Program-made: the position numbers and the translations under genes
NCBI GenBank assembly: GCA_964503125.1
Contig: CAZCZE010000020.1
Coordinates: forward strand, 159,979-223,978
Length of the DNA: 64,000 bases
Direction of reading: 5' to 3'
Origin: an uncultured Gammaproteobacteria bacterium
GTDB taxonomy: Bacteria; Pseudomonadota; Gammaproteobacteria; Steroidobacterales; Rariloculaceae
Part shown: positions 36,480 through 52,520 of the stretch, one piece after another
How positions within the stretch are numbered: the stretch's first letter is position 1
Layout: each line of letters starts with the position of its first letter
The notes under the pieces: model-generated
The model's input: the letters and a program-made list of their open reading frames with translations, nothing else
The model's database searches: none
Told to the model about the DNA's origin: nothing

Positions 36480-38696
36480 CTACGGCCGGGTGAGCGACAC
36501 GCGCTCGTGGTGCTCGAGATGCATTTGCGTGTCGGCCGTGGCGCCCGGCCAGTTGACCAATACGGTAATCGGTGCGCGATCCGCGTTCGAGGCGGCGCTG
36601 TCCACGAGGAACCGGCTGCCATCCGCGGTCACGGCGTAATGATCGCGAGCGTCCGCCGGCCCGCCGCCGAGCGGCGGGCGAAACAGCGGGCGCGGTGGAC
36701 CGAGCAACAGCGGCGCCGAGCCCGACACTTCGACCGACATGAGCTCGCGGTCCAGGGACATGAAGAAGATCTCGCGTTGGTCCGATCGCCATTGCGGTTG
36801 CCCGCCGCCGGCATGGGAGACGCGGTATTTCTTCTCGAGCTGCGGATAACTGACGACGTAGACCTCGATCGTGCCCGATTCGTCCGAGGCGTAGGCGATC
36901 CAACGGCCGTCCGGCGAGAAGCGTGCTTGCATCTCGTTGAACGCCGTTGCGAGCAGCGGCGCGGCGCGCTCGTCGGCGACCGATACGGCCCACAGATCGA
37001 GCTTCGTCTCGCCGTTCGCCTGTGTGTAGACGATGGTGTCGCCGCGCGGAGACCAGTCGTTGAGCACCTTCACGGCGCCGTCCCGCAATAACGGTCGGGC
37101 GACACCCTCGCTGGCCGTGGGGCGGACGAGCAGGTCGATGCCGTTGCGCGAGGTGAAGGCGACGCGGTCGCCGCCCGGTGCCCAGAGCGGCGCCATGGCA
37201 TCGGTCTCGAGTCTCGTGTACTCCGCTCGCGACAGGTTCGCGAGCCACAGACCCGGGTCGTTGGTGATGGAGCCCGTGGCGAGCACGGACGTCTCATCGG
37301 GCGACAGGCGCGGATTGAACAGGGTCGTCGGCACGGACAGCGAGCCGAGCTCGGCACCCGTCCGGTCGAACCAAGCGAGGTTTTGGCGCCTGGCGCCCTC
37401 GCGGAAAGCGACCAGGTTGCCGGCGGCGGACACGATGTCTCCATCCCCGAGTGACGGTGGCGAAACGTCGCGTGCGAGCAGAATCGAACGGCCCGTCGGC
37501 TCGAGGCGCGCCAGGTCGATCTCCTCGGCGACCAGCATGCCGTTTTGCACGTGCATGACATAGCGAGGGGGCGCGAAAACGGCGGGCGACTCCGTCGCGA
37601 ACAGCAGCTCCGCGCGCGCATCGTCGAGGCTCGCGACATAGACGCCCGTTCGCGCTGCGTCGAGGCTCATCGCGTGGTAGAGATAGCGCCGCCCGTCCGG
37701 GAGAAACTGCGGCCACGTGTGGGCGAGCTCCCGCGCATCGCGGTCGAGCCTCCTGAGCTCACGGATGGCGCCGTCCCCCGACGCGTCTACGGCATAGAGA
37801 CCCGTCGGCCAGTCGGCAAAAACGATCGTGTCATCCACCCCCCACGTGCCGCCGGCGGGTGCGATGTCGCCGTCGGCGACGATTCGCGTCGTCTCGCCGC
37901 GGAGCTCCACGATGCCGATGCTTCCGGCCGCGAAGAAACCGATTCGTCGGCCATCGGGTGACCAGAAAGGCTTCGACGCGCCGGCGGTGCCGGGCAAGCG
38001 TTTGGCTTCGGACGACTGCAACCGTCGCAACCATAGCGCGCTCTTGCCGGAGCTCACGTCGCGAGCGACGAACACGAGATGCTGCGCGTCGGGCGAGAGC
38101 ACGCCGCCCGACACGATGGCGGTGCCCGGCGGCGGCGGTAGGAACAAGCGGATTGCCGCTGTCGTATCGTTGCCCGGGCTCGGCGCGCGCGACGCGAGCA
38201 CGGCGAGCCCGCTCAGCGTCACGGCAGCGACCGCCGGCCAGAACAGGCGTCCGCGTCCACGGGCCGCGGCCTGCGCGGCGGTAGGCGCTGCGAAGGCCGC
38301 GGTCGGCGATTCGTGGGTCGGCGGCGCCAGGTCGGCGGCGACGGTCTCGACCGCGCACACGAAGCGATAGCCGCGGCGAGGAACCGTTTCGATGAGGTGG
38401 GGTGCATCGGGGTGATCGGCCAGCGCGCGTCGAAGGACCGAGATCGCATGGATCAAGCTGTCGTCGGTGACGATGACGTTGTTCCAGACGGCGCCGAGGA
38501 GCTCTTCTTTGTCGACGAGCCGGTCGCGATGCTCGATGAGGTAGACGAGCGTGTCGAATGCCCGCGAGGGCAGTGCAATCGTCTCGTGCCGCCCCCGAGA
38601 GACTTTCCGGGCAGCGACGTCGACCCTAAACGGGCCAAAGACATACGGGCCGCGCGCCGTGGCCGGTTTCGGCTCGTGAGTGGGGCCCGCGGACAT
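36480..38696 (-). CDS. Membrane-anchored winged-helix (CadC/ToxR-like) transcriptional regulator with periplasmic TolB-like beta-propeller
   Basis: The start MSAGPTHE is at the complement of 38694..38696, within track ORF 36480..38873. It has an OmpR/PhoB-type wHTH (..VPRRGYRF), one TM helix (LFWPAVAAVTLSGLAVLA) and repeated PD40/TolB-like blades (FSPDGRWIAY, WAPGGDRVAF, LSPDETSV). Confidence 0.85.
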   Translation of the reverse strand: MSAGPTHEPKPATARGPYVFGPFRVDVAARKVSRGRHETIALPSRAFDTLVYLIEHRDRLVDKEELLGAVWNNVIVTDDSLIHAISVLRRALADHPDAPHLIETVPRRGYRFVCAVETVAADLAPPTHESPTAAFAAPTAAQAAARGRGRLFWPAVAAVTLSGLAVLASRAPSPGNDTTAAIRLFLPPPPGTAIVSGGVLSPDAQHLVFVARDVSSGKSALWLRRLQSSEAKRLPGTAGASKPFWSPDGRRIGFFAAGSIGIVELRGETTRIVADGDIAPAGGTWGVDDTIVFADWPTGLYAVDASGDGAIRELRRLDRDARELAHTWPQFLPDGRRYLYHAMSLDAARTGVYVASLDDARAELLFATESPAVFAPPRYVMHVQNGMLVAEEIDLARLEPTGRSILLARDVSPPSLGDGDIVSAAGNLVAFREGARRQNLAWFDRTGAELGSLSVPTTLFNPRLSPDETSVLATGSITNDPGLWLANLSRAEYTRLETDAMAPLWAPGGDRVAFTSRNGIDLLVRPTASEGVARPLLRDGAVKVLNDWSPRGDTIVYTQANGETKLDLWAVSVADERAAPLLATAFNEMQARFSPDGRWIAYASDESGTIEVYVVSYPQLEKKYRVSHAGGGQPQWRSDQREIFFMSLDRELMSVEVSGSAPLLLGPPRPLFRPPLGGGPADARDHYAVTADGSRFLVDSAASNADRAPITVLVNWPGATADTQMHLEHHERVSLTRP

Positions 38697-38786
38697 CGTT
38701 CGTTCTTGGTTTTTCCGGAGTTTTCCGCGAGTTTCGGGACTTGCATTCGAGTCTAGCGTACGAATTCTCGGAGCGGCAAGCGGCGC
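38684..38786. repeat. 103-bp direct repeat, left copy
   Basis: GGCCCGCGGACATcGTTCGTTCTTGGTTTTTCCGGAG...GAGCGGCAAGCGGCGC is identical to 50201..50303 except for one C/T difference (38697 vs 50214). It contains the first 4 codons and the 5' leader of the regulator gene. Confidence 0.95.
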
Positions 38787-38832
38787 GACCGGCGCGCGTG
38801 TCGGGTGCCATTCATCGCAGGGACGCGACACC

Positions 38833-39507
38833 ATGGCGCGCGAGCGGGCGCGGCCGCGTGCTCCACCGTTCATCGATCCGCCGGGTTACGCACGCCACCG
38901 GCCCGAGGCGACGCTGCTCTACCAAGTCGTGGAGCGGCACTACCCCGAGTTTGTCGCCACGCGTGAAGCTGCTGGCCGACCTTTACCGAAGTACGTGCAC
39001 GAGGAGTTCGAGGCGTACTTGAGGTGCGGCCGCCTCGAGCACGGTTTTCTGCGCGTCCGCTGCGAGGACTGTCACGCCGAGAAGCTCGTCGCGTTCAGCT
39101 GTAAGCGCCGCGGCTTTTGTCCCTCCTGCGGCGCCCGGCGGATGACGGACAGCGCTGCGCTCCTGGCCGACGAAGTGTTACCGAAGAAGCCGCTACGCCA
39201 GTGGGTGCTGTCGCTGCCGATGGCGTTGCGCTTCCTATTGGCCACGGACCCCAGGGCGCTGACGCAGGTGCTTGGGATCGTCTATCGAACGATCTCGGCA
39301 CCCATTCTCAAGAGGGCGCGGCTGATGCGCGCGAGCGGTGCGACGGGCGCCGTGACGCTGATCCAGAGATTTGGGTCTGCGCTCAATCTCAATATTCACC
39401 TCCACATGCTGGTGCTCGACGGCGCGTACCTCGTCGACACCGAGCCACCGGTGTTCCGCCGGATCGCGCCGCCTAGCCTGGCGGAACTACAGGCGCTTGC
39501 GCTATGA
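38833..39507 (+). pseudogene. IS91-family (Y2/HUH rolling-circle) transposase, N-terminal fragment
   Basis: MARERARP... has a zinc-binding region, CEDCHAEKLVAFSCKRRGFCPSCGARRM, and an HUH-like NIHLHMLVLDGAY. Similarity ends around ..PPSLAELQALA at about 39500. Confidence 0.8.
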
Positions 39508-41268
39508 CCTGGCGCCGAGGAAATCCCGCAGGAATTCCTCGCGTGTCAAAGGGGGTCGAACGTCGTCTCCCAACAACTCCTGTGAAGAGGCTTCCTTTCT
39601 TAGGATGCGGTCATATTCAAACGGCTCTATGGTCTCGTCGCATAGCAGGATGAGGTACTCGACCGAGCGCTCCTGCCCTCTACGGTGGATGCGGTCTAGA
39701 CTTTGGAGATAGTGCGCAGCTTGGTTAGACATCGACTCGTACACCGCGTAGCGCGCTCGGTGCAATGTTAGGCCAGCGCCGGCAGCCGCAGGGTTGCCGA
39801 CGAAGAGCATGGTGACGTCATCCTCCTGGAACCTTCGAACGGCCTCCCGTCGGTCGTTGACCGCCGAGACTGAGCCGTCAATCCTCACAGGATTGTAGTT
39901 GCTGTAGCGAGAACAGAGCGCATTTACAGACGCCGTAAAGAATGACCATACGATGACCTTCTCGCCCTTTGCTTCGATAAGATCCGTAAGGATGCTGTCA
40001 AGCGCGGCAAGTTTCGCGGGAAGGCCGCAGCCAAAGGCCGAATCTATCCCAATTGGGTTGGAGCAAATTTGGAGGAGAGCCGTGCGCCTCGCCATGAAAG
40101 ACGCCAGATTCCGTTTGAAGCTTATTTCGTCAGTGGCGCGGACATCCTCCAGCAAGCCGGACATCGCACTCTCATACAATCGCCGCTGAGCTGGCGGAAG
40201 CGGGAGTATGATGCGCCGGAACGCGCGAGCGGGTAGATCGGGCAAGACTGCGCCCTTAAGTCGACGGATGTACACGCCGCGCGCCTCAATCGTCGCCGCG
40301 ACTACGTCCCTAGCGGCAACAGGATCGGTAGGCACCTCAACGCCCGAAAACGTCTCACCATCGTCGGCGATGTTGAATTGTTCAACAAGGTCAACCGCGC
40401 TATTTGGGGCGGGCGTCCCGCACAAGACGATACATCGACCAGCTTCGCGACGGAGCCTTCGTAATGCGCGAGCCCGCTGGGCTTCGGCGTTCTTCACAAA
40501 GAAGCTCTCGTCCACAATCAGTATGGCCCGCCCTTTCTCTCCCTGTAGTAGATGGCGTATCCGGATCTCAAGCTGCGTTGCCGTTTCGAAGTTGGTAACA
40601 AATATCTCGGCAGGCTCGTCCAATGTCGCACGCTTCTCTGCCTCATGGCCTACAACGGCAGCGGCCCGGTACTTGCTACCAAAAAACCTTGTGAGGTCAT
40701 GCACCCATTCGAGCACCATGTTCTTCGGCGCGAAGATTACCGCGCGTCCGACCAAGCCCTGTTCGCGAAGCCTGTCAAACGCGAACAGGGCCTCCACCGT
40801 CTTACCAACACCCTGCTCGTCAAATATGCAGAGGCCGCGGACATCTGGATGCGCCGCCAACGCGACGGCCGTAACTTGGTGTGCATCCAGAGCATCGATC
40901 CGCTCGTAGCCCTGCAACCACATTTTCGCGGTCTCTGGGGAGGCAATGGCTGTCCGGCAGGCCGCGAGGGCAGCGCTGTGCCACTGACGCCGATGTCGCG
41001 CTGACGTAGCCGCCGCGAGAACGCCCGCTGAGACTGCAAAGGACCATCCGTCAAGCGCAATACGGCAGGCTTCGAGTTCCAACACGTCAACCAGCGCACC
41101 GCCCGCAACCGGATCAAGTTGCAGTGAGATGCCCGCTGTCCGAAGCGTCCGCTCTAAAGTGCGCAGTCTGGCGCTGGGACCAGGCTTGATGAAACAGCGA
41201 CCATCGCGCGCGAGGTTCGCATGGGCATCAAGCTGCGGCATTGGAATCCTCAGGCTGGCTGTTGTCAC
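39502..41268 (-). CDS. SNF2-family helicase-like ATPase
   Basis: 588 aa with motif I DEQGVGKT, motif II VDESFFVKN, motif III LCGTPAPNS and helicase-C QSLDRIHRRGQ. The alternative start MPQLD is 27 nt downstream. The stop sits right at the left junction of the cassette. Confidence 0.85.
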   Translation of the reverse strand: MTTASLRIPMPQLDAHANLARDGRCFIKPGPSARLRTLERTLRTAGISLQLDPVAGGALVDVLELEACRIALDGWSFAVSAGVLAAATSARHRRQWHSAALAACRTAIASPETAKMWLQGYERIDALDAHQVTAVALAAHPDVRGLCIFDEQGVGKTVEALFAFDRLREQGLVGRAVIFAPKNMVLEWVHDLTRFFGSKYRAAAVVGHEAEKRATLDEPAEIFVTNFETATQLEIRIRHLLQGEKGRAILIVDESFFVKNAEAQRARALRRLRREAGRCIVLCGTPAPNSAVDLVEQFNIADDGETFSGVEVPTDPVAARDVVAATIEARGVYIRRLKGAVLPDLPARAFRRIILPLPPAQRRLYESAMSGLLEDVRATDEISFKRNLASFMARRTALLQICSNPIGIDSAFGCGLPAKLAALDSILTDLIEAKGEKVIVWSFFTASVNALCSRYSNYNPVRIDGSVSAVNDRREAVRRFQEDDVTMLFVGNPAAAGAGLTLHRARYAVYESMSNQAAHYLQSLDRIHRRGQERSVEYLILLCDETIEPFEYDRILRKEASSQELLGDDVRPPLTREEFLRDFLGARS

Positions 41269-42550
41269 CCTCGCTACTGGATTGCAGTCCGTGAAGGATC
41301 TTCACGGTGTCAGTGAGTATCTGGCGCAAATGATCAAGGCTTGTCGGCGTCAGCCGTCGATAGTCCTCCCGTTTGAAGCTGTCCAGCCAGGCCGCGAAGT
41401 GCGTAATCCGTTCGTTCGCTGCGGACTTGTCTTTGATACGCACGGGATCATTCGAGATGACCGTCTCGATAGCCCGCTTGACCCCCTCGTCATCATCGGC
41501 ATTCGCGTGTTTGCGCGCCTCAGGATCTTGCAGAATCTTCGGAACCGACCTGACGTCAACGAACGATTTGAACTTGCCCTCCCAGAGCCAGCGAAATACT
41601 TCATCGCGTGCATCCGGGTTCGTCTCTAGCGTCCCCCAGACACCTGGTTTGCTGAGCTCATCGAAATACTCGAAGTTTTCTTGAATCTGCAGCTCGACGT
41701 CGACCTCCGGTCGGTCGAACTCCTCTTCGTGGTACTCCTTGAACTGGGAAGCCAAACCAAACATTTTGATCCAGCGGTCAGCTTGCCGCCAGCCACTCAG
41801 CCCAAACTCCTCCGCGATCTGCACCTTCGCCGCACGTTTGACCTGCGGATCATGCGGATCTTCCGCGGCGAGACGCTGGTAGATATTGAAGACCTCCTCC
41901 GCTTTCACGTACGAGGGCCACGGGATGTGATCCTTCTCCTTGAAGTTCAGCTCCGTCAAGACGGCCCGTTTGACGGCCGTGTCCGTCTCAGGGTCTCCTG
42001 ACGGAACGTGCACGTAGGCTGGCAGCCAGCGCGCTTGATTCCGCGCGCCGCTAAACGCCGGATCAGTCATGATGTGTTGAGCGCCATACCGGCGGCGATT
42101 GCCATCCCACAGCGTGCCGTGATTACCATTCACGTGGATGAAGATTGGTTCCTGCACACCATTCGCGGCGATGTTGTGTGCCATGCGTTCCAGGTGGAAC
42201 GGCTTTCTTGATCGAGCCGACTCGCCGCGATCGGCCTCCAACATGACTTCGTAAATTTCTTGCGTCGTGGGCTCCTTATTCATATCGCCCTGCCGTGCGC
42301 GCCATCGACGCAAGTAGTGTTTCAGCCGGATGTTCTCGGCCCAGCCGTCCACGTCATCGATATGAACACGCCCGTACCACACTGATACCTCGCGGCCGTG
42401 GTACCTGCGGGTCATTCGCCGAGGCTGGTGCTCGGCGTCGGCGCTCGCGACTTCGCGCACGTACCGATCGAGGATCGTCGGCCACTCGGGGCGACGACCT
42501 GCTTGGCCCGTACCGGGCGGGGTAGCAGTGTTGGCCATTTGAGTCTCCAT
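41228..42550 (-). CDS. ParB/Srx-fold N-terminal domain protein (arginine patch GNRR) with HTH-like segment
   Basis: 440 aa with QEPIFIHVNGNHGTLWDGNRRRYGAQ, which resembles the ParB box II GERRxRA NTP-binding patch. It is followed by IAEEFGLSGWRQADRWIKM (HTH-like). No recognisable nuclease domain follows. Confidence 0.65.
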   Translation of the reverse strand: METQMANTATPPGTGQAGRRPEWPTILDRYVREVASADAEHQPRRMTRRYHGREVSVWYGRVHIDDVDGWAENIRLKHYLRRWRARQGDMNKEPTTQEIYEVMLEADRGESARSRKPFHLERMAHNIAANGVQEPIFIHVNGNHGTLWDGNRRRYGAQHIMTDPAFSGARNQARWLPAYVHVPSGDPETDTAVKRAVLTELNFKEKDHIPWPSYVKAEEVFNIYQRLAAEDPHDPQVKRAAKVQIAEEFGLSGWRQADRWIKMFGLASQFKEYHEEEFDRPEVDVELQIQENFEYFDELSKPGVWGTLETNPDARDEVFRWLWEGKFKSFVDVRSVPKILQDPEARKHANADDDEGVKRAIETVISNDPVRIKDKSAANERITHFAAWLDSFKREDYRRLTPTSLDHLRQILTDTVKILHGLQSSSEGDNSQPEDSNAAA

Positions 42551-42594
42551 TGCGGTTAGTGTGTGTGCATGTGAAAGACGCGCGCTGTGACAAG

Positions 42595-43395
42595 TCAGCT
42601 CTCGTCTTCATCGAGTTGATCGACCATAAAGCTCCCGCGGGTCTCCTCGAACGCCGCCACGAAACGAGCAGGCGGTCTCAACCCTAACTCCGTCACTACT
42701 TTCGGAATCTCGACGTGCAGCGCCGCGTAGGCTCGCTGCTTAGCCTTCCTGAAAGCGGCGGGCTTCATCCCCAAAGAGGCCGCCGCCATCTGTGACTGCA
42801 CGTCGAAGTCCTTGCGAGCGAAGTCGAACTGGAACGTCGAGAGATGTCGGATCAGTGCACGCTGCTTGAGCGTCAATTTCTCAAGAGCCGCCTCGACGAC
42901 AACCACTGCCCATGACCCGTCCGCCTCCACGTCGCTGAGAGTTTCCTCAACAGCGACCACAGCCCAGGCCGCGGGCACGAGCGTTGACCCATCGACGGAT
43001 GCGTCTGTTGCATCTGCGCTTGCCGGCGCCGGTGCAGACAATGCCTCAACCGAACTGACCAACTCATTGCGCCGTCGGCGGTGCAGCGTAGCGCCGCAGT
43101 TCCAAGCCGATCGCGCTAGATAGGCGTAGGGATCGGAGATTCGTTGGCCGTGTCTGCGCTCGACGAACGCCTCCAGAGCCTCCGCAATACAATCCTCAGC
43201 ATCCGAGATCTGTAGATTGAGACCGGATGACACGAGCCGCAGCAGGCGCGGTACTCCTTCCCCGACCATGACCTGGTAGAAGGCGGCTCGATCAGCTGCT
43301 GCCCAGAGTTGCGCCAGGCGTGTCGCCAATGACAACTGTTCCTCTTCATCTTCGTTTGACACGCCGGCCCGCTTCCCCGCCTCCGTTCTATCCAT
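42595..43395 (-). CDS. ECF-sigma-factor-like protein
   Basis: The start MDRTEAGK is at the complement of 43393..43395, within track ORF 42595..43521. It is region-2-like (ISDAEDCIAEALEAFVERR...DPYAYLARSAWNCGATLHRRRRNE) and region-4-like (LTLKQRALIRHL...QMAAASLGMKPAAFRKAKQRAYAAL), with an Ala/Asp/Val-rich linker between. Confidence 0.55.
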   Translation of the reverse strand: MDRTEAGKRAGVSNEDEEEQLSLATRLAQLWAAADRAAFYQVMVGEGVPRLLRLVSSGLNLQISDAEDCIAEALEAFVERRHGQRISDPYAYLARSAWNCGATLHRRRRNELVSSVEALSAPAPASADATDASVDGSTLVPAAWAVVAVEETLSDVEADGSWAVVVVEAALEKLTLKQRALIRHLSTFQFDFARKDFDVQSQMAAASLGMKPAAFRKAKQRAYAALHVEIPKVVTELGLRPPARFVAAFEETRGSFMVDQLDEDES

Positions 43396-43637
43396 CACAT
43401 AGACGCGAGCCGTGACACTCGGCAGCGATCGCGCGCTCGCACACGCCAGGGGAAGCGTAACAAGCACATAGACTTGCACGGCGCCTGCATAGATGCGTAG
43501 TTGCGCACCTATGTGCGTCAATGCTCACTGACGCACAAATATGCGCTAATACAAGCCAAAGCCCGTCTGTTTGCGTCTTACAGCACGAACCGGCAGAATC
43601 TTGCGCTGCCTTAGCGCAGCGATAACGAAGGGCGTCG

Positions 43638-43835
43638 ATGAGCAAGACTGTGAGGTTAAGTACGACGATCGACAGCCGATTGGCAGTGCGACTCCAGCGC
43701 GAGACCGACGAACGGACGCCTCGGCTTCCTAAGAGATACGTCATCGAGCTCGCTCTCCAGAGACTCTTCGAGGCCGTTGACCGTGGTCAGCTGGAGTTAG
43801 GACTAGGCGACGATGCCCGATCAAAAAGCGAATAA
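43638..43835 (+). CDS. Ribbon-helix-helix (CopG/Arc-like) small DNA-binding protein
   Basis: 65 aa. MSKTVRLSTTIDSRLAVRLQRE is a beta-strand plus helix pattern typical of RHH. It overlaps the C5-methyltransferase start by 23 nt and is divergent from the sigma-like operon. Confidence 0.55.
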   Translation: MSKTVRLSTTIDSRLAVRLQRETDERTPRLPKRYVIELALQRLFEAVDRGQLELGLGDDARSKSE

Positions 43836-45168
43836 GAAAAGGCTTCCCGTCATATCGCTGTTTAGCGGCGCTATGGGACTCGACCTGGGCCTCGAAGCAG
43901 CGGGCCTTCGTATCGCTGTTGCGCTAGAGTGCAACAGGTTTCCGTTGGCGACCATCCGGAAGAACCGTCCGAACCTTCCCTTGATCAACCAGCCGATCGA
44001 GGACGTTACAACGAAGGAAATCCTCGATGCCGCGGGATTAAAACCAGGAGAGGCGTTCGCGGTGGTAGGCGGACCGTCCTGCCAAGTGTTCAGCACAGCG
44101 GGAAATCGCCGATCGCTTGCCGATCCTCGTAGCACGATGTTCAAGCACTTCGTGCGCGTTATTCAGGAAGCAAGGCCGAAGTTTTACGTGATGGAGAATG
44201 TCCGCGGGCTTATTTCGGCTGCGGTGCGTCACCGCCCATTGAATCAGCGCGGACCCGGCTTCCCGCCTCTCGAAGAGGATGAGGAACTAGGGTCAGCCTT
44301 CAAAGTTGTCGCCGCGTCGTTACGAGGGCTCGGCTACTACAGTGTGTTCGACGTGTTGAACGCGGCTGACTACGGCGTTCCGCAGGCACGGCAGCGACTA
44401 CTGATCCTCGGTAGCCGGGATGGGAAGAAGATACGGATGCCGGAGCCGAGTCACGACCAGCACCGCCGCGATAAACGTCTTCGCTGGCGTACGCTCCGTG
44501 ATGCATTCAAAGGATGGGAAGAGGACAGTCGAGAGTTCTACAACTTTTGCCCGTCGAAGGAGCGCTATCTAAAATTGGTGCCCGAAGGTGGCAATTGGCG
44601 AGACCTACCGGAGCGCATGAAAAGTGAGGCGCTCGGGAGTGCGTTCGACTCGTGGGGCGGGAGATCCGGCTTTTTCCGACGGCTCTCCTTAGATGAACCG
44701 AGTCCCGCTCTTACCACGCGACCCGATAGCAAGGCGACGACACTCTGTCATCCGACTGAGCTAAGACCGCTAACGGTCGGTGAGTATGCACGAATCCAGC
44801 AGTTCCCCTCCCACTGGGTGTTCGAGGGAAGCGTCCGAAAAAAGTACGAACAAGTTGGAAACGCTGTGCCCATCGGACTCGGGAAAGCTGTCGGCAAGGC
44901 GCTGCTGGAGGCATCACGTACTCACGCGAATCCGCAGCGTTTGGAGCGAATTGAGTGCCTAAATCTCGACCTGCTATCAAAGCTCAGTCGCCGACCACGG
45001 ACAATCGTTAACCCCCCGCGGATGCGTGTTAGTGCTAAAGATGAAACGATATCGGAGTGGCACGGCGATGGGCCACGAATGCGCCTCGACGCATTTGACT
45101 ACGCGCCTCCTGGAACAGTAAAGGCATTACAGAAGCTCATCGGACGCTCAAACAGCGCTGGTTTGTAA
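43813..45168 (+). CDS. DNA (cytosine-5)-methyltransferase
   Basis: 451 aa with motif I ISLFSGAMGLDLG, motif IV GGPSCQVFS, motif VI ENV, motif VIII QARQRLLILG and motif X GNAVP. Confidence 0.9.
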   Translation: MPDQKANKKRLPVISLFSGAMGLDLGLEAAGLRIAVALECNRFPLATIRKNRPNLPLINQPIEDVTTKEILDAAGLKPGEAFAVVGGPSCQVFSTAGNRRSLADPRSTMFKHFVRVIQEARPKFYVMENVRGLISAAVRHRPLNQRGPGFPPLEEDEELGSAFKVVAASLRGLGYYSVFDVLNAADYGVPQARQRLLILGSRDGKKIRMPEPSHDQHRRDKRLRWRTLRDAFKGWEEDSREFYNFCPSKERYLKLVPEGGNWRDLPERMKSEALGSAFDSWGGRSGFFRRLSLDEPSPALTTRPDSKATTLCHPTELRPLTVGEYARIQQFPSHWVFEGSVRKKYEQVGNAVPIGLGKAVGKALLEASRTHANPQRLERIECLNLDLLSKLSRRPRTIVNPPRMRVSAKDETISEWHGDGPRMRLDAFDYAPPGTVKALQKLIGRSNSAGL

Positions 45169-45343
45169 TAAGCCGAGACGCGTCAAGCGGCATCGCGGAC
45201 GCAAGCGTGGTGAACTCTTCTTGTCTGAGGCGATCTAGGCAGGCGAAAGACAACTTTGCACGGTCAGAACGTGCAACCCTATTCACTGGAACCTGCGTGC
45301 TGGAGGCCACATCATCGAGCAGAATTCCGGGTGGCTTGAGTCG

Positions 45344-45697
45344 TTGATTAGTGCACGCGACCGAGTGAACCACTACAAGGATGGGGGCATCGAGCCAGAC
45401 GTGTTTACGGTGTGCGCGATCAACGACAAAGACGATGTAACCGTGCAGATTCCGATGTGGTCTGATGAACAATCGGTGGCACAGATGACGTTCGCCGCTT
45501 TCGGTGCGCTATTTCATTTCGTCGAGCAGTTCTTTTTCGCTGTTTTGGCGGCTCGTCTCCCCGACGAGCTGGGCGTCCTAAAGGCGTCCAACGTCCCACT
45601 CTATGAGCCACAGTCGCCTATCCATATCATGCGAACCTCAGAGTTCGAAGCGATTCGCGCTAAGGGCGGATGGTCGTCGCGTGGGGATCCGCTCTAA
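45344..45697 (+). CDS. Hypothetical protein (weak call)
   Basis: 117-aa track ORF with a TTG start. It has no recognisable motif and overlaps an equally unconvincing antisense ORF (45137..45472). Confidence 0.2.
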   Translation: MISARDRVNHYKDGGIEPDVFTVCAINDKDDVTVQIPMWSDEQSVAQMTFAAFGALFHFVEQFFFAVLAARLPDELGVLKASNVPLYEPQSPIHIMRTSEFEAIRAKGGWSSRGDPL

Positions 45698-46025
45698 CAG
45701 GGCGTGTGCGCGATTTCTGATCGAAACGCAGAAATACAGTACTAGCCACCGGCCTACTACTGGATGGACGCTTCGCCACGATGCTTGCCAAGATCCTGCG
45801 CATGCCGCCGCCCGTTGTCCTGACCGACGAGGATCTCAAGATCGCCGAGGCAGCATGCCGCCGCCTAGCCGCGCGGTATCGGCGCAAACGCGATTTCGAG
45901 ACGGCCGCGAGTTGGGAAGGGATGGCCGACAGAATCGCGCGCGTGCGGGCGCCGCGGTGACGGAGCAAGAGTTACAGACGCTCGCCGATCTAGGTGAGCG
46001 GCACGCGATCTACGCCCTCTCCAAT

Positions 46026-49000
46026 CTAGGAGTGCCAAGCTAATGAACTGTCGCGACAGCCGCGATAGTTTTCATCGAGTTGCTCGTTTAGCAACACGAT
46101 AGACGCGAGGCGGCGGATCATTGAAGACACGTATCGCGCTTCCGCCTTCGTTAACGGGCGGCCAAGGACACCTCCTTCGCGGTAGGAAAGCCATTTTTTC
46201 ACGACCTGATATCCACCGATGCGAAACTCCCACACTGCCGTTGGAACGTTGCCCCAATAGACGTGGTCGTTGAGGAATACGTCCACAGGTGGTCCAAAAC
46301 GTTCAAGCGCGGAATGCATACCCGGGACGTTCTGCAAAAGCAGCTTGAAGTTCGGCAATTCCTCCCAAGCTCGTTGCGCGAGCCGGCCCTTACCAGGCAT
46401 CACTGTCCCTTCAGTCATACCGCCCCACCCAACGTCCAAGTAGAGATCCTTAGCCGCTAGTTGTCCGCCCCCGACGCGAGAGACGTTTCCAAGCTCCGCG
46501 AGGAGCGGAGCCATCGATTCTAAGCTCGCGTTATCGAACCCTTGATCTGGATCCAATAGCGCGGCAATTCGGGCGCCTAGCTTGGCGGAGCGAAGAAGAC
46601 TGGTTTGGTCGGAGGGCAAGGGCACACGCGGCCAGTCGTTCAAGACGCCGTCCCTATTCTCCGCGAAATATTCGGGCGCGGAGAGAATCGCGGTTGCATG
46701 CATCCAGATAAGGTCAGTCACGCTACTGTCGGAATCCGGATCTCCAATTGTCAGTTCAGCGATGTACTTCCGCGCTCTAACGGACAGATTCGCGCGCGAC
46801 TTGCCTTTCTCCATCTCCAACAGAAGTCCGCCGACGTTTCCGTCGGTGTTCGGTGCAAGGCGGAAGGGAATAGCGACGACGTTTGGTCGAAGAAGGTGAT
46901 AGTCCGGGAGTGCCGCCGTGATCATTGCCGCGATACCCTCGTTCGGCCGCTCCGCGGACATCCGTGTAACTAGAGCCTTAGTGGCCATAGGCAGGTTGTT
47001 GACCAGAGCGGGGCGCGGCTCATTCCACAACGGCCTCGCTGCGCTCCAATAGCACCACCGATGGTCGAGCGGATAGAGCGCGTAGCGGCGAACAGCCGAA
47101 GCGCTATACGGAGCCGTCTTCAACAAAGCTGCGCGGACTTTCTGTGCGTCGAATCGCCCGCCGTCCTTGACCGGACCAATTTGTGCGGCGACGAGGGCTT
47201 GCCAGCTCACAGCCGAATCCAAATACGTGGCCATACGTTTCTCAAGCGTCACACGGTCTATCGACATGAGGGTCCCGCGGCGCATCTCCTGCAGGCCACT
47301 GATTGGCTCGGCCTCGCACAGGTCGATGACGCGCGGCCACGACAGATAGGATGCTGTTACGTTCTGAGGTTTGAACGTGAAACGGTTAATCGCCGTTGGG
47401 CTAGTCATTGCGTACTGCTCATCGAACGCAGGCACTTTGAGACTGTCTAGAACGGCCTCTCTCTTTGATGCGCCCCAGAACTCCCTAAATCGCACAATCG
47501 GTTTCTCGACGCGATCCTGCCGCAATACGAATAGGCCGATCGACGTCCCGAGCTTGATTCCCTCGCGATTGAACTCCGTTGAAAACACGGACGGGTCGGG
47601 CTCCCCAGTCGGCGTCAATTTGCCGGTCTCCCGCGAGTCGCCGTTAAGACTATCGATCCAGATGGCATCGAACTGTTTCAACAGTCGCTCGCGTAGAACA
47701 ACGTAGGAAGGATCTCCGAGATACGAATAGCTGGAGATGTAGCTAAAAATTCCTCTTCCAGTCTGCGCGATCCTTCGTTCCGCGATCCGAAAGAACCTGA
47801 CGTAAAGCTCATCCAAATTGAACTTTTTTATCCCCCATTTGCTATTCAATCCCGCCTTGTACGGTTCGACTAATCCCTGCTCCTCGTCCGGGCTCGTCCC
47901 TGCGTACGCGTTGTACGGCGGGTTACCAAGAATCACGAGCACCGGAACATCACGCTTCACGTGCTCTGCTGCGTCCCTTTCCACTTCGAGTTCCGGAAAC
48001 ATGGCGAGGGTTGCCTTTGGCCCGGTGGGCACGTCCCAGCCTGTCAAGGCGTTCGTGAGATAGATCGAGGGCCGTTCCCCTTCTTCAGGATCCAAAGGCG
48101 CACCGAAGCTTGCGAGCAGGTTTCCCACTTGCCAATGCGCAACAACGAATGATGCAGGTAGGATCTCAAAGCCAAATACACGCTCGCGCGCGGCTTCCTT
48201 GAGATCCTCCCCGATCAAGGCGTCACTGCCTTCGTCAGTCAACGTTGCGGCGATGCGCCGGAGTACTTCCACGACGTACGCGCCGGTGCCGCAGCAAGGG
48301 TCAAGAACATAGACGTTTTTATCCGCGAGGCCGCGTTCGAGGTTGAGTTCTGTTCTTAGGAGGTGATCGACGCGCTGAACCATGTACTTCACTATTTCTG
48401 CCGGTGTATACCAGACGCCAAGTTCTTTTCTCAGCTCCGGATCGAAGTCTTTTAGGAAGGGCTCGTAGAAGTGCTGAACGGCTTGGCCGCTATCGAAACT
48501 AGCGAAGAACTCTTTCCGCTTTACTCGATTCAGGGCTTCGCCGGTCCTGTCTAAGATCGCCGAAATTCCGAGTGTGCTGAGGCGAACGGGATTTGCGACT
48601 TCAGCGAAGATGCTCCGGATCATCGGAACGGTTAGCACATAGCCGGCGGTCTTCCAGTCGAATGCAGATTTGCCTTCCCGCGATACGAGTACCCACGCAG
48701 AAAACACGCCGTAGAAAAGCGTTTGGACGAGCGTCGATTTGAAGAAGTGATCTCCCTTCTTGCCGTGAAACTTGATACCAAGGATCGTCTCCAATCCCTC
48801 GCGCAGCGGTTTTAGCGCTAGATCGTCCTTCTTTTCGACCGTTTTGAGCGCTTCTCTCGCATACGACGCAAGAAACCCAGCGATGTCCCCGGGGCGCGTA
48901 AGTGGTGCCGCGCTCATCAGCACGCGCCGCGCGAACTCGGTGAAGGCGTCAACGTGATCACTCGCTGCCTTCACGGGGTCCGCACACATTAGCCAAAACG

Positions 49001-49457
49001 TGCTCTCGTCGGTCGCGAAGCTATAGAACTCGCGCTCCTGTGGGTTACCCGAAGAGTCTTCGCCGATTAGCCGAAAATCCCGATAGTTGCTAAGCAGAAT
49101 TAGCCGATAGAGACCGAAGTACTTCGTTGCCTGATCGCTGTTGGCCGTTCGCCAAGTGTCGTCTGAAAGGGGCTTTACCTCGATTACGCCGCGCTCCGGA
49201 ATCGCGCCCATTCCCTTCTTCGGAGCGCCTTTTGAAAACTGGCTCTTGGTGTACAAGCCGAAGTCAGGATGCCCTGAGCCTTGATTACGCAGTTGGCCAT
49301 TGCATACGACGGCTGGTTTTAAGGTCTTCCCAATGGCATTCAGAAGGTTTTCGAGGGCGGCGTAGTAGGAGGTCTCATCGGTCGCGCTGCCTGTACTGCG
49401 GATCTCTAGCATCCGCTCGAAGTACTTGCGGATGGCCTCCTCAATGTTGTCGCCCAA
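46026..49457 (-). CDS. Type IIG/IIL-like restriction-modification fusion: N-terminal PD-(D/E)xK nuclease-like domain + gamma-class N6-adenine methyltransferase + C-terminal specificity region (type ISP-like C-terminus)
   Basis: 1143 aa. The N-terminus GHPDFGLY...GVIEVKPL...QATKYF resembles the D..ExK..Q..Y layout of MmeI-type enzymes. It has MTase motif I VLDPCCGTG and motif IV GNPPY. No helicase motifs are seen in this polypeptide. Confidence 0.8.
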   Translation of the reverse strand: MGDNIEEAIRKYFERMLEIRSTGSATDETSYYAALENLLNAIGKTLKPAVVCNGQLRNQGSGHPDFGLYTKSQFSKGAPKKGMGAIPERGVIEVKPLSDDTWRTANSDQATKYFGLYRLILLSNYRDFRLIGEDSSGNPQEREFYSFATDESTFWLMCADPVKAASDHVDAFTEFARRVLMSAAPLTRPGDIAGFLASYAREALKTVEKKDDLALKPLREGLETILGIKFHGKKGDHFFKSTLVQTLFYGVFSAWVLVSREGKSAFDWKTAGYVLTVPMIRSIFAEVANPVRLSTLGISAILDRTGEALNRVKRKEFFASFDSGQAVQHFYEPFLKDFDPELRKELGVWYTPAEIVKYMVQRVDHLLRTELNLERGLADKNVYVLDPCCGTGAYVVEVLRRIAATLTDEGSDALIGEDLKEAARERVFGFEILPASFVVAHWQVGNLLASFGAPLDPEEGERPSIYLTNALTGWDVPTGPKATLAMFPELEVERDAAEHVKRDVPVLVILGNPPYNAYAGTSPDEEQGLVEPYKAGLNSKWGIKKFNLDELYVRFFRIAERRIAQTGRGIFSYISSYSYLGDPSYVVLRERLLKQFDAIWIDSLNGDSRETGKLTPTGEPDPSVFSTEFNREGIKLGTSIGLFVLRQDRVEKPIVRFREFWGASKREAVLDSLKVPAFDEQYAMTSPTAINRFTFKPQNVTASYLSWPRVIDLCEAEPISGLQEMRRGTLMSIDRVTLEKRMATYLDSAVSWQALVAAQIGPVKDGGRFDAQKVRAALLKTAPYSASAVRRYALYPLDHRWCYWSAARPLWNEPRPALVNNLPMATKALVTRMSAERPNEGIAAMITAALPDYHLLRPNVVAIPFRLAPNTDGNVGGLLLEMEKGKSRANLSVRARKYIAELTIGDPDSDSSVTDLIWMHATAILSAPEYFAENRDGVLNDWPRVPLPSDQTSLLRSAKLGARIAALLDPDQGFDNASLESMAPLLAELGNVSRVGGGQLAAKDLYLDVGWGGMTEGTVMPGKGRLAQRAWEELPNFKLLLQNVPGMHSALERFGPPVDVFLNDHVYWGNVPTAVWEFRIGGYQVVKKWLSYREGGVLGRPLTKAEARYVSSMIRRLASIVLLNEQLDENYRGCRDSSLAWHS

Positions 49458-49664
49458 TCGCCGTCTCCGTGTGGACCAGGATGGCCCCAGTGGGTAGGTG
49501 TTGGCAGTTGTCCAAGTTTACAGTACTGCCGTCGATCAAAATGGCCGCGCAGGGAAACTCTAGAAGGCTGGCATCCGTGTCCCACATCAATGAAGTGGGG
49601 GCGCATTGTTTGCGCGGGCTGCGCCCACGCACCGCTCTTATCTCGAGCTCGACCCGGAGGCTGA

Positions 49665-50114
49665 CGGCCCGATGGACGATCTTCTGGGGCACTCGATCAC
49701 GGGACGACGCACATCGTGCTGGAGCCGTTGGACTTCATCGCTCGCCTCGCGGCGCTGGTGCCGCCGCCGCGGGTACACCTGACGAGGTTCCATGGGGTGT
49801 TCGCGGCGCACGCGGTGCTGCGAGCGGCGATCACCCCGGCAGGAAGAGGGTCGGGGGCACAGCAGCGAACCACCGCCCCGGAGCAGCCTAGACTCAAGGA
49901 TCTTCGCATGACCTGGGCGCGCCGCCTAAAACGCGTGTTCGGGATCGAGATTGAGCAGTGCGCGCGCTGCGGCGGGCGCTTGAAGGTGATCGCGAGCATC
50001 GAGGAACCGGAGCTGATCGAGCGCATCCTCACGCACCGGCGGGAGCGGGGCGAGGAGGCGGCACCGACGACCGCGCTCGGGGCGCGAGCGCCGCCGCAGG
50101 GGCTGTTGTTCTGA
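49665..50114 (+). pseudogene. IS91-family transposase, C-terminal fragment
   Basis: ..DHGTTHIVLEPLDFIARLAALVPPPRVHLTRFHGVFAAHAVLRAAI.. and CARCGGRLKVIASIEEPELIERIL are typical IS91-family C-terminal blocks. Weaker similarity (..SVSHINEVGAHCLRGLRPR..RRLTA) continues upstream from about 49530 in another frame, implying a frameshift. Confidence 0.75.
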
Positions 50115-50200
50115 TTCACCTGGTCGTCGACGGGCTCGTGGTTTTCAGCGCGGGCGGCGGGCGGTGCTGCGCGCAGCGTGGCCGGAGGCCGACATCGGCC

Positions 50201-50303
50201 GGCCCGCGGACATTGTTCGTTCTTGGTTTTTCCGGAGTTTTCCGCGAGTTTCGGGACTTGCATTCGAGTCTAGCGTACGAATTCTCGGAGCGGCAAGCGG
50301 CGC
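50201..50303. repeat. 103-bp direct repeat, right copy
   Basis: See the left copy. Here the duplicated MSAG codons run into an unrelated 23-codon remnant ORF. The repeat is followed 45 nt later by the ATG of 50349. Confidence 0.95.
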
Positions 50304-50348: not shown

Positions 50349-52520
50349 ATGCCAGCCGTCCGAGCTCTGAACGTCCTTGCGTTGTGCGTGCTCGCGGCCG
50401 CCGGCCTGCGCGTTTTGGGTCAGCCTGCGACATCCGAGCCCATCGCCGTCGATTCGGACGACATCGCCGGGGTCGTGACCGGACCGAACGGCCCGGAGGC
50501 CGGGGTCTGGGTCATTGCCGAGACCGAGGATCTGCCGACGAAGTTTCGCAAGATCGTCGTGACGGACGACCGCGGCCGCTACCTGTTGCCCGATCTGCCG
50601 CCCGCCAACTACGTGCTCTGGGTGCGCGGCTACGGCCTCGTCGACTCGCCGCGTGCGCGCTCTGCCCCAGGCCGAATCGTCGCACTGCCGGCCGTGATCG
50701 CGCCCGACGCGCGCGCGGCCGCGCAGGTCTATCCGGCCAATTACTGGTACTCGCTGATCGAGCTGCCGCAACCCGACCAGTTCCCCGGTACCGGCGCCGG
50801 CGGCAACGGCATCGAAGCGGGCATGGCGACCCAGCACCATTGGATCAATCAGATCAAGACGGGCTGCGTCGTTTGCCACCAGCTCGGCAATCTCGCGACG
50901 CGCGATTTTCCGCCGGGCCTCGGGCAGTTCGAGTCCGCGTACGACGCTTGGGATCACCGCACGCAAGTGGGCCAGGACGGCACGGCGATGATCAGCGCCA
51001 TCAATGCGCTCGGCCGCCGTCCCGCTCTGACGATGTGGGCGGATTGGACCGACCGCATCGCGGCCGGCGAGCTGCCGCCGCAGCCGCCGCGCCCGCAGGG
51101 CATCGAGCGCAATCTCGTGCTGACACTCTGGGAGTGGGGCGGCGAGGCGACGTTCGCGCACGACGAGTTGTCGTCCGACAAGCGCAATCCGCGAGCCAAC
51201 GCCAACGGCCCGATCTACGGCGTCGATTGGGGCAACGACGGCTTCCTCACGCTCGACCCGAACACGCACACCGCGACCGAGGTGCGGATCCCGGTCCTCG
51301 ACCCGACGACGCCGCCGGGTAAGCCGCAATCGATGCCGCGGCCATCGCCGTACTGGGGCACCGAGCTCTACTGGTACGACCCGGCCATCACGAATCATGC
51401 GGCGATGGACAGCAAAGGCCGCGTCTGGATGTCGTCGCGGTTCCGCCGGCCCGAGAGCCAGCCCGAGTTCTGTCGCAACCATCCGTCGGCGGCGTTGTCG
51501 CCTCAGGAGTCGAGCTTCCGCCAGGTGCAGTATTTCGACCCGCGGACGAAGGCGTTCCACCAGGTCAACATCTGCTTCGACACGCATCACGTGCAGTTCG
51601 CGTCCGACGATGATGAGACGCTCTACGGTAACGGCGTGTTCAGCGGCGCGATCGGCTGGGTCAACACGCGCGTGCTCGACGAGACCGGCGACGAGGCGGC
51701 AGCGCAAGGATGGTGCCTGCCGTATTACGACGTCGACGGCAACGGCAAGATCGAAGCCGGCGGCGTCGACCGCTATGTGTTCGCGCACCTCGGCCAACCG
51801 ACCGGGCGGCTCGCGGGCATGCGGATCCCCGCGGGCGTGATCTACAGCGTCATTCCGCACCCCACCGACGGCAGTGTCTGGGGGGCCGTGCCCGGACCGA
51901 TGCCGGGCCGCATCATCCGCGTCGACCCGAAGACGTGCGTTTCCGAGGTCTACGAGCCGCCGTTCAACAATCCCGAGGTCAACGTGAACGGTTACACGCC
52001 GCGCGGCATCGACGTCGATTCCTACGGCGTGATCTGGACGGCACTCGCCGGTAGCGGTCATCTCGCGAGCTTCGATCGCCGCAAGTGCAGAGTCTTAAGC
52101 GGCCCCGCGTCGACGACGGGGCAGCACTGCCCCGAAGGCTGGACGCTGTATCGAACGCCGGGGCCGAGCTTCAAAGGTGCAACCGACGCGATCGCCGTCG
52201 ACATGTCCTACTACAACTTCGTCGACCGCTTCAACACGCTCGGGCTCGGCCCCAACGTGCCGATCGCGAACGGGACCAACTCGGACTCGTTGCTGGCGCT
52301 GCAACCCGACGGCCGCTGGGTCGTTCTCCGCGTGCCGTATCCGCTCGGCTTCTTCACGCGCGGCATGGACGGTCGCATCGACGACCCGAATGCGGGCTGG
52401 AAGGGTCGCGCCCTCTACGGCGACTACGGACAGAACGCCGTTTGGCACATCGAGGGCGGCAAGGGCACGCGCAGCTCCGTCGTGAAGTTCCAGCTGCGTC
52501 CGGACCCGCTCGCGAAGTAG
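50349..52520 (+). CDS. Secreted carboxypeptidase-regulatory-like domain protein with one CxxCH motif and C-terminal beta-propeller-like region
   Basis: 723 aa with a signal peptide and GVVTGPNGPEAGVWVIAE...VTDDRGRYLLPDLPPANYVLWV (CarboxypepD_reg-like). It also has QIKTGCVVCHQLGN (CxxCH) and repeated ..G.VW.. blade-like segments. Confidence 0.75.
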   Translation: MPAVRALNVLALCVLAAAGLRVLGQPATSEPIAVDSDDIAGVVTGPNGPEAGVWVIAETEDLPTKFRKIVVTDDRGRYLLPDLPPANYVLWVRGYGLVDSPRARSAPGRIVALPAVIAPDARAAAQVYPANYWYSLIELPQPDQFPGTGAGGNGIEAGMATQHHWINQIKTGCVVCHQLGNLATRDFPPGLGQFESAYDAWDHRTQVGQDGTAMISAINALGRRPALTMWADWTDRIAAGELPPQPPRPQGIERNLVLTLWEWGGEATFAHDELSSDKRNPRANANGPIYGVDWGNDGFLTLDPNTHTATEVRIPVLDPTTPPGKPQSMPRPSPYWGTELYWYDPAITNHAAMDSKGRVWMSSRFRRPESQPEFCRNHPSAALSPQESSFRQVQYFDPRTKAFHQVNICFDTHHVQFASDDDETLYGNGVFSGAIGWVNTRVLDETGDEAAAQGWCLPYYDVDGNGKIEAGGVDRYVFAHLGQPTGRLAGMRIPAGVIYSVIPHPTDGSVWGAVPGPMPGRIIRVDPKTCVSEVYEPPFNNPEVNVNGYTPRGIDVDSYGVIWTALAGSGHLASFDRRKCRVLSGPASTTGQHCPEGWTLYRTPGPSFKGATDAIAVDMSYYNFVDRFNTLGLGPNVPIANGTNSDSLLALQPDGRWVVLRVPYPLGFFTRGMDGRIDDPNAGWKGRALYGDYGQNAVWHIEGGKGTRSSVVKFQLRPDPLAK

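Follow-up and report, generated by a model that had tools for sequence, protein, structure and literature searches.

An 11,414-bp insertion flanked by a 103-bp direct repeat occupies the control region between two divergent transcription units in the genome of an uncultured gammaproteobacterium of the family Rariloculaceae (assembly GCA_964503125.1). The stretch of DNA analysed here, referred to as the window, comprises 64,000 nt of a single contig (C20:159979-223978; GenBank CAZCZE010000020.1) in a 68-contig, 4.37-Mb draft. On one side of the insert lies the gene of a CadC/ToxR-like regulator, and on the other an operon whose first gene begins at 50349. The insert itself (38787-50200) reads as one degenerate copy of an IS91-family element, with its transposase gene split by a 10.1-kb cassette that carries restriction-modification homologues. 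We consider it probable that a single illegitimate insertion, independent of any transposase, placed this 11.4-kb fragment in the divergent control region and duplicated 103 bp of the target.

The left (38684..38786) and right (50201..50303) copies of the repeat, defined by their alignment and by a search of the genome itself, align without gaps and agree at 102 of 103 positions; their spacing is 11,517 bp. The sole mismatch, C at 38697 against T at 50214, falls at repeat position 14, the base just 5' of the regulator's ATG. An extension of the repeat to 110 nt at 96% identity was rejected, because only scattered matches occur past position 103. The 4.37-Mb genome contains exactly two copies of the sequence (E = 2e-48 and 7e-47), which argues against both chance similarity and membership in a dispersed repeat family. 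Read on the minus strand, the repeat holds the regulator's ATG (38696-38694), the codons for S, A and G and the first base of codon 5, together with ~90 nt upstream of the start. An earlier note on this stretch had described the copies as identical but for one C/T difference and as containing the start codon, the MSAG codons and about 90 nt of leader, and the alignment and the minus-strand reading agree with it on both counts. In the right copy the same ATG opens a frame of only 22 codons (50213 down to 50145), which enters the insert.

The repeat is native to the site and not a part of the inserted element. Related genomes were searched with a query in which both outer flanks were joined around one repeat copy. 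Three genomes of the same genus (G007, G010 and G013) align contiguously across the joined flanks, and in eight further same-genus genomes the regulator and the operon lie ~0.5 kb apart. A 23-nt repeat core retrieved four metagenome contigs, two of which (L067 and L068) extend from the regulator through one copy of the region into the operon. The region is present once and without the insert in seven related genomes or metagenome contigs, and no island occupies the site in the 11 same-genus genomes in which both genes were found or in the two metagenome contigs. Exact-protein look-ups of the regulator, with either of two possible starts, and of the first operon protein returned no other contigs. 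The earlier note had viewed the insert as bracketed by a duplicated original divergent intergenic region and had predicted an empty site consisting of the regulator, a single 103-bp copy and the 50349 gene; precisely this arrangement is found in the three same-genus genomes and in contigs L067 and L068.

In alignments of seven related sequences, hardly any position varies in the stretch GTTCTTGGTTTTTCCGGAGTTTTCCGC..TTTCGGGACTT..GTCTAGCGTACGAATTC, in contrast to flanking genes that are only 71-79% identical. We therefore distinguish within the repeat a near-invariant segment (38698..38769, with its second copy at 50215-50286), which reads as a conserved divergent promoter/operator core. The duplicated 103 bp, native target DNA, covers the whole of the conserved control core. 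Within the core are three direct repeats with ~11-nt phasing (GTTTTTCCGGA / GTTTTCCGCGA / GTTTCGGGACT), at 38706-38740 and again at 50223-50257. They probably constitute an operator of the adjacent CadC/ToxR-like winged-helix regulator, and phasing of ~11 nt would be expected for the operator of an OmpR/CadC-type winged-helix protein. The core is complete in both copies, so that the regulator and the 50349 operon each retain the divergent intergenic region, as had been claimed. The insertion has also given each copy a new neighbour. The predicted rightward promoter of the left copy now faces the truncated transposase reading frame, whose ATG lies 47 nt past the repeat, the operon's own ATG lying at 45 nt; the predicted leftward promoter of the right copy faces the Type IIG gene of the cassette, ~750 nt away.

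The regulator gene (36480..38696, minus strand), the first 13 nt of which lie within the left repeat, encodes a winged-helix Trans_reg_C domain and a PD40/TolB-like beta-propeller according to Pfam. In three same-genus genomes (L019-L021) a CAT stands at the alignment column of the regulator start, which supports the start codon at 38696; no CAT is aligned at this column in L067-L069. The longest open reading frame of the regulator (36480-38873, minus strand; 797 aa, ATG at 38873) crosses the repeat, reaches into the IS91 remnant and is an annotation artefact created by the insertion. At 50349..52520 (plus strand) lies the leading gene of the operon that once diverged from the regulator; in related genomes it adjoins the regulator.

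The nature of the inserted DNA was established by comparison with an intact 492-aa transposase of the same subfamily, encoded in G015, a genome of the same genus, and with a long fragment from contig C20. The 5' remnant (38787..39498, plus strand) consists of a 47-nt leader and the transposase N-terminus (ATG at 38834), with the Zn_Tnp_IS91 domain, the HUH motif and positions 1-29 of Y2_Tnp, and lacks the terIS side. The transposase gene can be followed to 39498 and again from 49618, only ~55 nt of it having been lost at the cassette. The 3' remnant of the same element (49618..50200, plus strand) begins at approximately residue 45 of the reference and includes the stop codon (50112-50114) and a subterminal hairpin (50153-50190). 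A 259-nt deletion at ~49699-49707 shifts the frame and removes the region of the tyrosine motif (RYVSRPP). With its gene split by the cassette and the tyrosine motif deleted, the transposase is dead. The genome contains many IS91 fragments and no intact IS91 transposase; 26 further places match the 3' part of the element.

Both tips of the element are missing. In nine copies from the same genome the hairpin GCGGGCGGTGCTGCGCGC is followed by ~180 nt leading to a conserved GGTTCAAAATACCTATCCGC end, which lies downstream of the transposase gene and resembles oriIS; the oriIS-like terminus of related copies in this genome is GGTTCAAAATACCTATCC. The window copy ends 44 nt after the start of the hairpin, at the point where the right repeat begins, so that ~136-140 nt including oriIS are absent, and the 64-kb window contains no oriIS-like sequence with up to 3 mismatches. 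On the left, a conserved leader of at least 91 nt precedes the ATG in nine copies from genomes of the same genus; the window copy has 47 nt of it, ~45 nt or more being missing.

Transposition in the IS91 family needs oriIS and terIS, inserts beside a CTTG/GTTC-type tetranucleotide and produces no target duplication (PMC13181058). None of the features of the canonical product, namely oriIS, terIS, absence of a target duplication, a junction tetranucleotide and an intact HUH/Y2 transposase, is found in the window. Since both tips are lost, neither canonical nor one-ended IS91 transposition can have made the junctions, and since the termini and the tyrosine motif are absent, the remnant transposase cannot have acted in cis. 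The contention of the earlier note that the event is atypical for IS91, a family that leaves no target duplication and inserts by GTTC/CTTG, is upheld by these observations. Its companion suggestion that GTTCGTTCTTG after the ATG hints at an IS91 target does not stand: this sequence is native and sits at a distance of 14 nt within the repeat instead of at a junction, and most of the relatives without the element retain GTTCTTGG. The GTTC/CTTG tetranucleotides of the repeat as a whole sit 14-21 nt from the junction. Two further ideas were rejected, namely one-ended transposition from a nearby oriIS, because the window contains none, and homology of part of the 103 bp to the IS91 left end, raised by a MAFFT alignment, because the 103 bp are conserved in relatives without the element.

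The cassette inside the transposase gene (39499..49617) replaces the ~55 nt lost from it and has a guanine-plus-cytosine (GC) content of 55-60%, against 65-70% in the flanking host DNA. It encodes an SNF2-family helicase of DpdE/ZorD/DrmD-like type (39502..41268, minus strand; Pfam and PADLOC scans); a 440-aa protein without a family match, which forms part of a conserved module with the helicase (41228..42550, minus strand); a 308-aa protein weakly similar to ECF sigma factors, with scores below the curated cut-offs (42595..43521, minus strand); a C5 cytosine DNA methyltransferase (43813..45168, plus strand; Pfam and PADLOC scans); and a Type IIG or Type ISP-like fused restriction endonuclease-methyltransferase (46026..49457, minus strand; PADLOC 2.7e-79; Pfam Type_ISP_C and N6_Mtase). 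The module of SNF2 helicase, 440-aa protein, 308-aa protein and Dcm-type methyltransferase (39502-45168) recurs in two metagenome-assembled genomes of Rhodospirillales (L050 and L051) at 63-72% nucleotide identity. Two of its four proteins have no match in PADLOC, Pfam or NCBIfam, and the module may represent an uncatalogued defence system. No match to the 440-aa protein was found in 300 other genomes of the order. Proteins 54-60% identical to it occur in metagenome-assembled genomes of Nitrospirae, Dehalococcoidia, Holophagales and other groups. The lower GC content, the absence of the cassette from 300 genomes of the order and the nearest module in Rhodospirillales together indicate that the insert is foreign.

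No integrase, other transposase, tRNA gene or Rfam RNA was found in or beside the insert. Its ends form no terminal inverted repeats, a comparison by eye giving ~12/23 matches, and a second duplication was looked for at the junctions of cassette and transposase and not found. The possibility that the cassette occupies a recurrent site within IS91 elements was rejected: copies on contig C58 and in G006 end nearby but represent other truncations.

How could an element with neither tips nor a working transposase have entered this site? In the explanation we favour, the incoming fragment would have been a dead IS91 copy without its two tips, whose interior the foreign restriction-modification/defence cassette already occupied. 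The target would have been broken with a stagger of ~103 nt, either through single-strand breaks on opposite strands or at a broken or regressed replication fork, the break falling in an AT-richer, divergently transcribed region. The overhangs would then be filled in, and host end joining would attach both ends to the linear fragment with little or no homology. Microhomology at the right junction amounts to 1-2 nt at most; at the left junction a GC-rich 'GCGGCGC' match is possible, which would need the donor sequence to be established. The genome encodes a Ku homologue (C9:114439-114978; 175 bits), which makes end joining plausible, and the lineage probably possesses a non-homologous end joining pathway. 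By the geometry of the duplication, the regulator and the operon were each left with a complete conserved promoter/operator core, and this preservation of the control core on both sides probably explains why the insertion survived. Were the two repeat copies to recombine, the island could be cut out exactly, and the site would be empty again.

The architecture has a precedent. Insertion of restriction-modification genes with long target duplication was first described by Nobusato et al. (2000, Gene 259:99), as cited in PMC2853133. In their survey, Furuta, Abe and Kobayashi (2010, NAR, PMC2853133) required homologues of both restriction and modification genes in an insert of <20 kb, a flanking direct repeat of >30 bp that is unique in the genome and present in a single copy at the empty site, and the absence of an integrase and of a tRNA target. 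The repeats of the published cases measure 45-423 bp, and cases with mobility genes nearby were left out of the screen (PMC2853133). The window insert agrees with this definition in the length of its repeat (103 bp), in its uniqueness (two copies in 4.37 Mb), in the empty site (from other species), in its size (11,414 bp), in the presence of restriction and modification homologues, as judged by sequence, and in the lack of an integrase or tRNA gene. Its structure matches 'insertion with long target duplication', of which it is a fresh example, the mechanism being not new. The likeness extends to a repeat far longer than the target duplications of transposons, and in both cases double-strand breakage is suspected. 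Unlike the published cases, the window insert is framed by the trimmed ends of one dead IS91 element, with the cassette inside the transposase gene, and its duplication comprises a whole divergent promoter/operator, whereas that of the published class is a gene end. Later work extends the pattern of long target duplication to other DNAs and discusses alternative routes (PMC3457768). Taken with the tip-less IS91 copy and the lack of normal IS91 junctions, the fit to this class places the event in the category that the earlier note had proposed, 'atypical insertion mechanism, or repair or duplication event'.

Several points weigh against a single illegitimate insertion. The stagger, the fill-in and the end joining are steps that we infer, and the literature on insertions with long target duplication offers no demonstrated mechanism. 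The definition of the published class excludes genes of mobile elements, and here an IS91 transposase pseudogene frames the insert. The two ends of the insert moreover lie close to the tips of one and the same IS91 unit, within ~50 and ~140 nt respectively, which would be odd for a randomly captured fragment and hints that IS91 processing supplied it. All empty sites stem from other species of the genus, with flanking genes 71-79% identical, and none is conspecific; those of the published class come from other strains. Finally, the assembly is the sole evidence for the integrated form.

A circle carrying the island and one 103-bp copy could also have integrated in the manner of Campbell, by a single homologous crossover within the 103 bp; recombination between the repeats, or illegitimate circularisation, could have released the circle from the chromosome of a conspecific. 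Such a crossover yields exactly the order repeat, island, repeat, and the lone C/T difference near one edge fits a polymorphism between donor and recipient. Members of the IS91 family pass through circular intermediates and, in one-ended transposition, can take flanking DNA along (PMC13181058), and Furuta et al. propose a cycle of repeat-mediated amplification and release for restriction-modification units (PMC2853133). This route, however, could account for the spread of the arrangement within a species and not for its origin: the circle would need an island already flanked by the 103 bp on either side, so that an earlier illegitimate event at the same non-IS breakpoints would still be required. 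In addition, 103 bp is short as a substrate for homologous recombination, and an IS91-made circle should contain an oriIS-terIS junction, neither end of which is present. We regard Campbell-type integration as unlikely.

The proximity of the insert ends to the IS91 tips invites a combination of HUH excision with host insertion, in which cargo-laden IS91 units would be excised by a transposase acting in trans, as circles or linear molecules, then resected and captured by host end joining at staggered breaks. If true, this route would explain both the IS91 debris of the lineage and the way in which transposase-dead elements bearing defence islands reach new sites with long target duplications; we hold it to be rather improbable. 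An account resting on aberrant IS91 chemistry throughout would have a transposase in trans excise the cargo unit, circular or linear, whose tips would be resected before insertion into single-stranded DNA exposed at the divergent promoter or at a replication fork, with strand joins 103 nt apart. Both ends of the insert do lie near the tips of one IS91 unit in the correct order and orientation, the genus possesses an intact transposase of the same subfamily (G015), and the genome is rich in IS91 debris, as the 26 further matches to the 3' part attest. Single-stranded DNA is the substrate of HUH enzymes, and the repeat contains GTTC/CTTG tetranucleotides; these tetranucleotides, however, are native and 14-21 nt off the junction, with GTTCTTGG kept in most relatives. 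Neither oriIS nor terIS is found at the junctions, nor any oriIS-like sequence in the window, the genome itself lacks an intact transposase, and members of the family make no target duplication (PMC13181058). We consider such chemistry quite improbable.

An assembly artefact or strain chimera, in which an empty site and a separate element or locus sharing the 103 bp were misthreaded by the assembler, would produce the same picture. The genome is a draft of 68 contigs, and the sole mismatch, 13 nt from the left edge of the repeat, cannot by itself distinguish the two threadings. Against this, many pairs of contig ends share an overlap of exactly 141 nt, which suggests a final de Bruijn k of 141. 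Such a k exceeds the repeat by 38 nt, so that single k-mers must link the regulator through the repeat to the 5' end of the IS element, and the 3' end of the element through the repeat to the operon; the junction k-mers must then exist in the reads. The host contig is 373 kb long, and the island has no alternative contig. An artefact is accordingly very unlikely. Least credible of all is site-specific recombination, with the repeats as attL and attR of an integrase-less, cis-mobilisable island served by an integrase in trans: integrative elements are known to have long att repeats by which a gene end is rebuilt (PMC2853133), but the insert contains no integrase, recombinase, tRNA gene or Rfam RNA, its ends are broken IS91 sequence, the 103 bp are native and conserved in relatives with no match in the island relatives L050 and L051, and the lack of any island at the site in the 11 same-genus genomes and two metagenome contigs shows that it is no hotspot.

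Other systems resemble the favoured illegitimate insertion in part. Target duplications of IS1634/IS1549 elements run from tens to hundreds of base pairs. The IS1634/IS1549 group, related to IS4, and IS1630 are listed as makers of long, variable target duplications (PMC2266710), that of IS1630 measuring 19-26 bp in the figure quoted in PMC2853133. Such elements possess a DDE transposase gene as well as terminal inverted repeats, and a scan of all open reading frames of the window insert and of its ends revealed neither. The remnant shares the Zn_Tnp_IS91 and Y2_Tnp domains and the HUH motif with the IS91/ISCR elements, which co-mobilise adjacent DNA and form circles (PMC13181058); their cargo, however, lies beyond terIS, whereas that of the window lies inside the transposase gene. 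In the Dup-IS-Dup structure of Pseudomonas fluorescens SBW25, an insertion sequence found in an experiment at a duplication junction has been read as capture during break repair (PMC11708052). As in the window, mobile DNA there lies exactly between two direct host-sequence copies, and a canonical target duplication is lacking; the scale differs, with a 60-kb duplication and an intact IS481 in SBW25 against 103 bp and an 11.4-kb dead IS91 copy with cargo in the window.

Documentation of insertions with long target duplication goes back 25 years, and their mechanism is still undemonstrated. The window provides a case from an uncultured, high-GC lineage that encodes Ku, and what distinguishes this case is its tip-less IS91 frame together with the exactly preserved divergent operator. 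The capture of a tip-less IS91 unit with a composite defence island hints at the source of inserted fragments, while the exact duplication of a divergent promoter/operator illustrates how regulatory DNA can receive an insertion without either neighbour being disabled. Insertions of this kind also place predicted host promoters before the genes of the island.

The wider IS91 population of the genus offers some context. In G015 (L044; C9:72800-76500 of that genome), the intact 492-aa transposase with an oriIS-like end is followed by a tandem second 3' fragment with a second ori end, and this element is likely an active relative of the IS91 debris in the genome studied here. In the latter, right ends of IS91 that include oriIS occur in pairs, directly oriented and 5.8-7.7 kb apart, at C20:304836-305300 / 310624-311087, C49:238519-238738 / 245838-246059 and C64:34374-34558 / 42114-42298, an arrangement consistent with past one-ended or tandem IS91 mobilisation of the intervening DNA. 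Contig C58 (positions 1-2600; L004) carries a miniature IS91 derivative, in which the transposase N-terminus, up to the equivalent of 39448, is joined directly to the subterminal hairpin and the ori end of the 3' side; ~1.8 kb further on, at the contig end, comes another 3' fragment that has the same flank.

When the genome was scanned for further long direct repeats separated by 0.3-60 kb, most of the results proved to be right ends of IS91 or multi-copy repeats. Among the results is an 84-bp direct repeat (L059; C1:69336-69419 / 77405-77488), 97.6% identical and 8.07 kb apart, which encloses genes for a TonB receptor, a GGDEF-EAL protein, a YfiR-like protein and a histidine kinase. A simple target duplication was rejected for this locus, because relatives keep the repeat contiguous only with the right flank, the left flank mapping elsewhere; a third, diverged copy lies on contig C12, and the locus reads as a rearrangement boundary. 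Contig C61 (L061; 11,057 bp) has identical 141-nt ends, which makes it a 10.9-kb circular molecule, plasmid or phage-like, binned with the genome and unrelated to the insert by BLAST. Within an IS91-rich stretch of contig C20, a 318-bp direct repeat with 99% identity and only two copies (L060; C20:306201-306518 / 308875-309192) encloses 2.4 kb with the gene of an AMP-binding enzyme and a 225-aa open reading frame.

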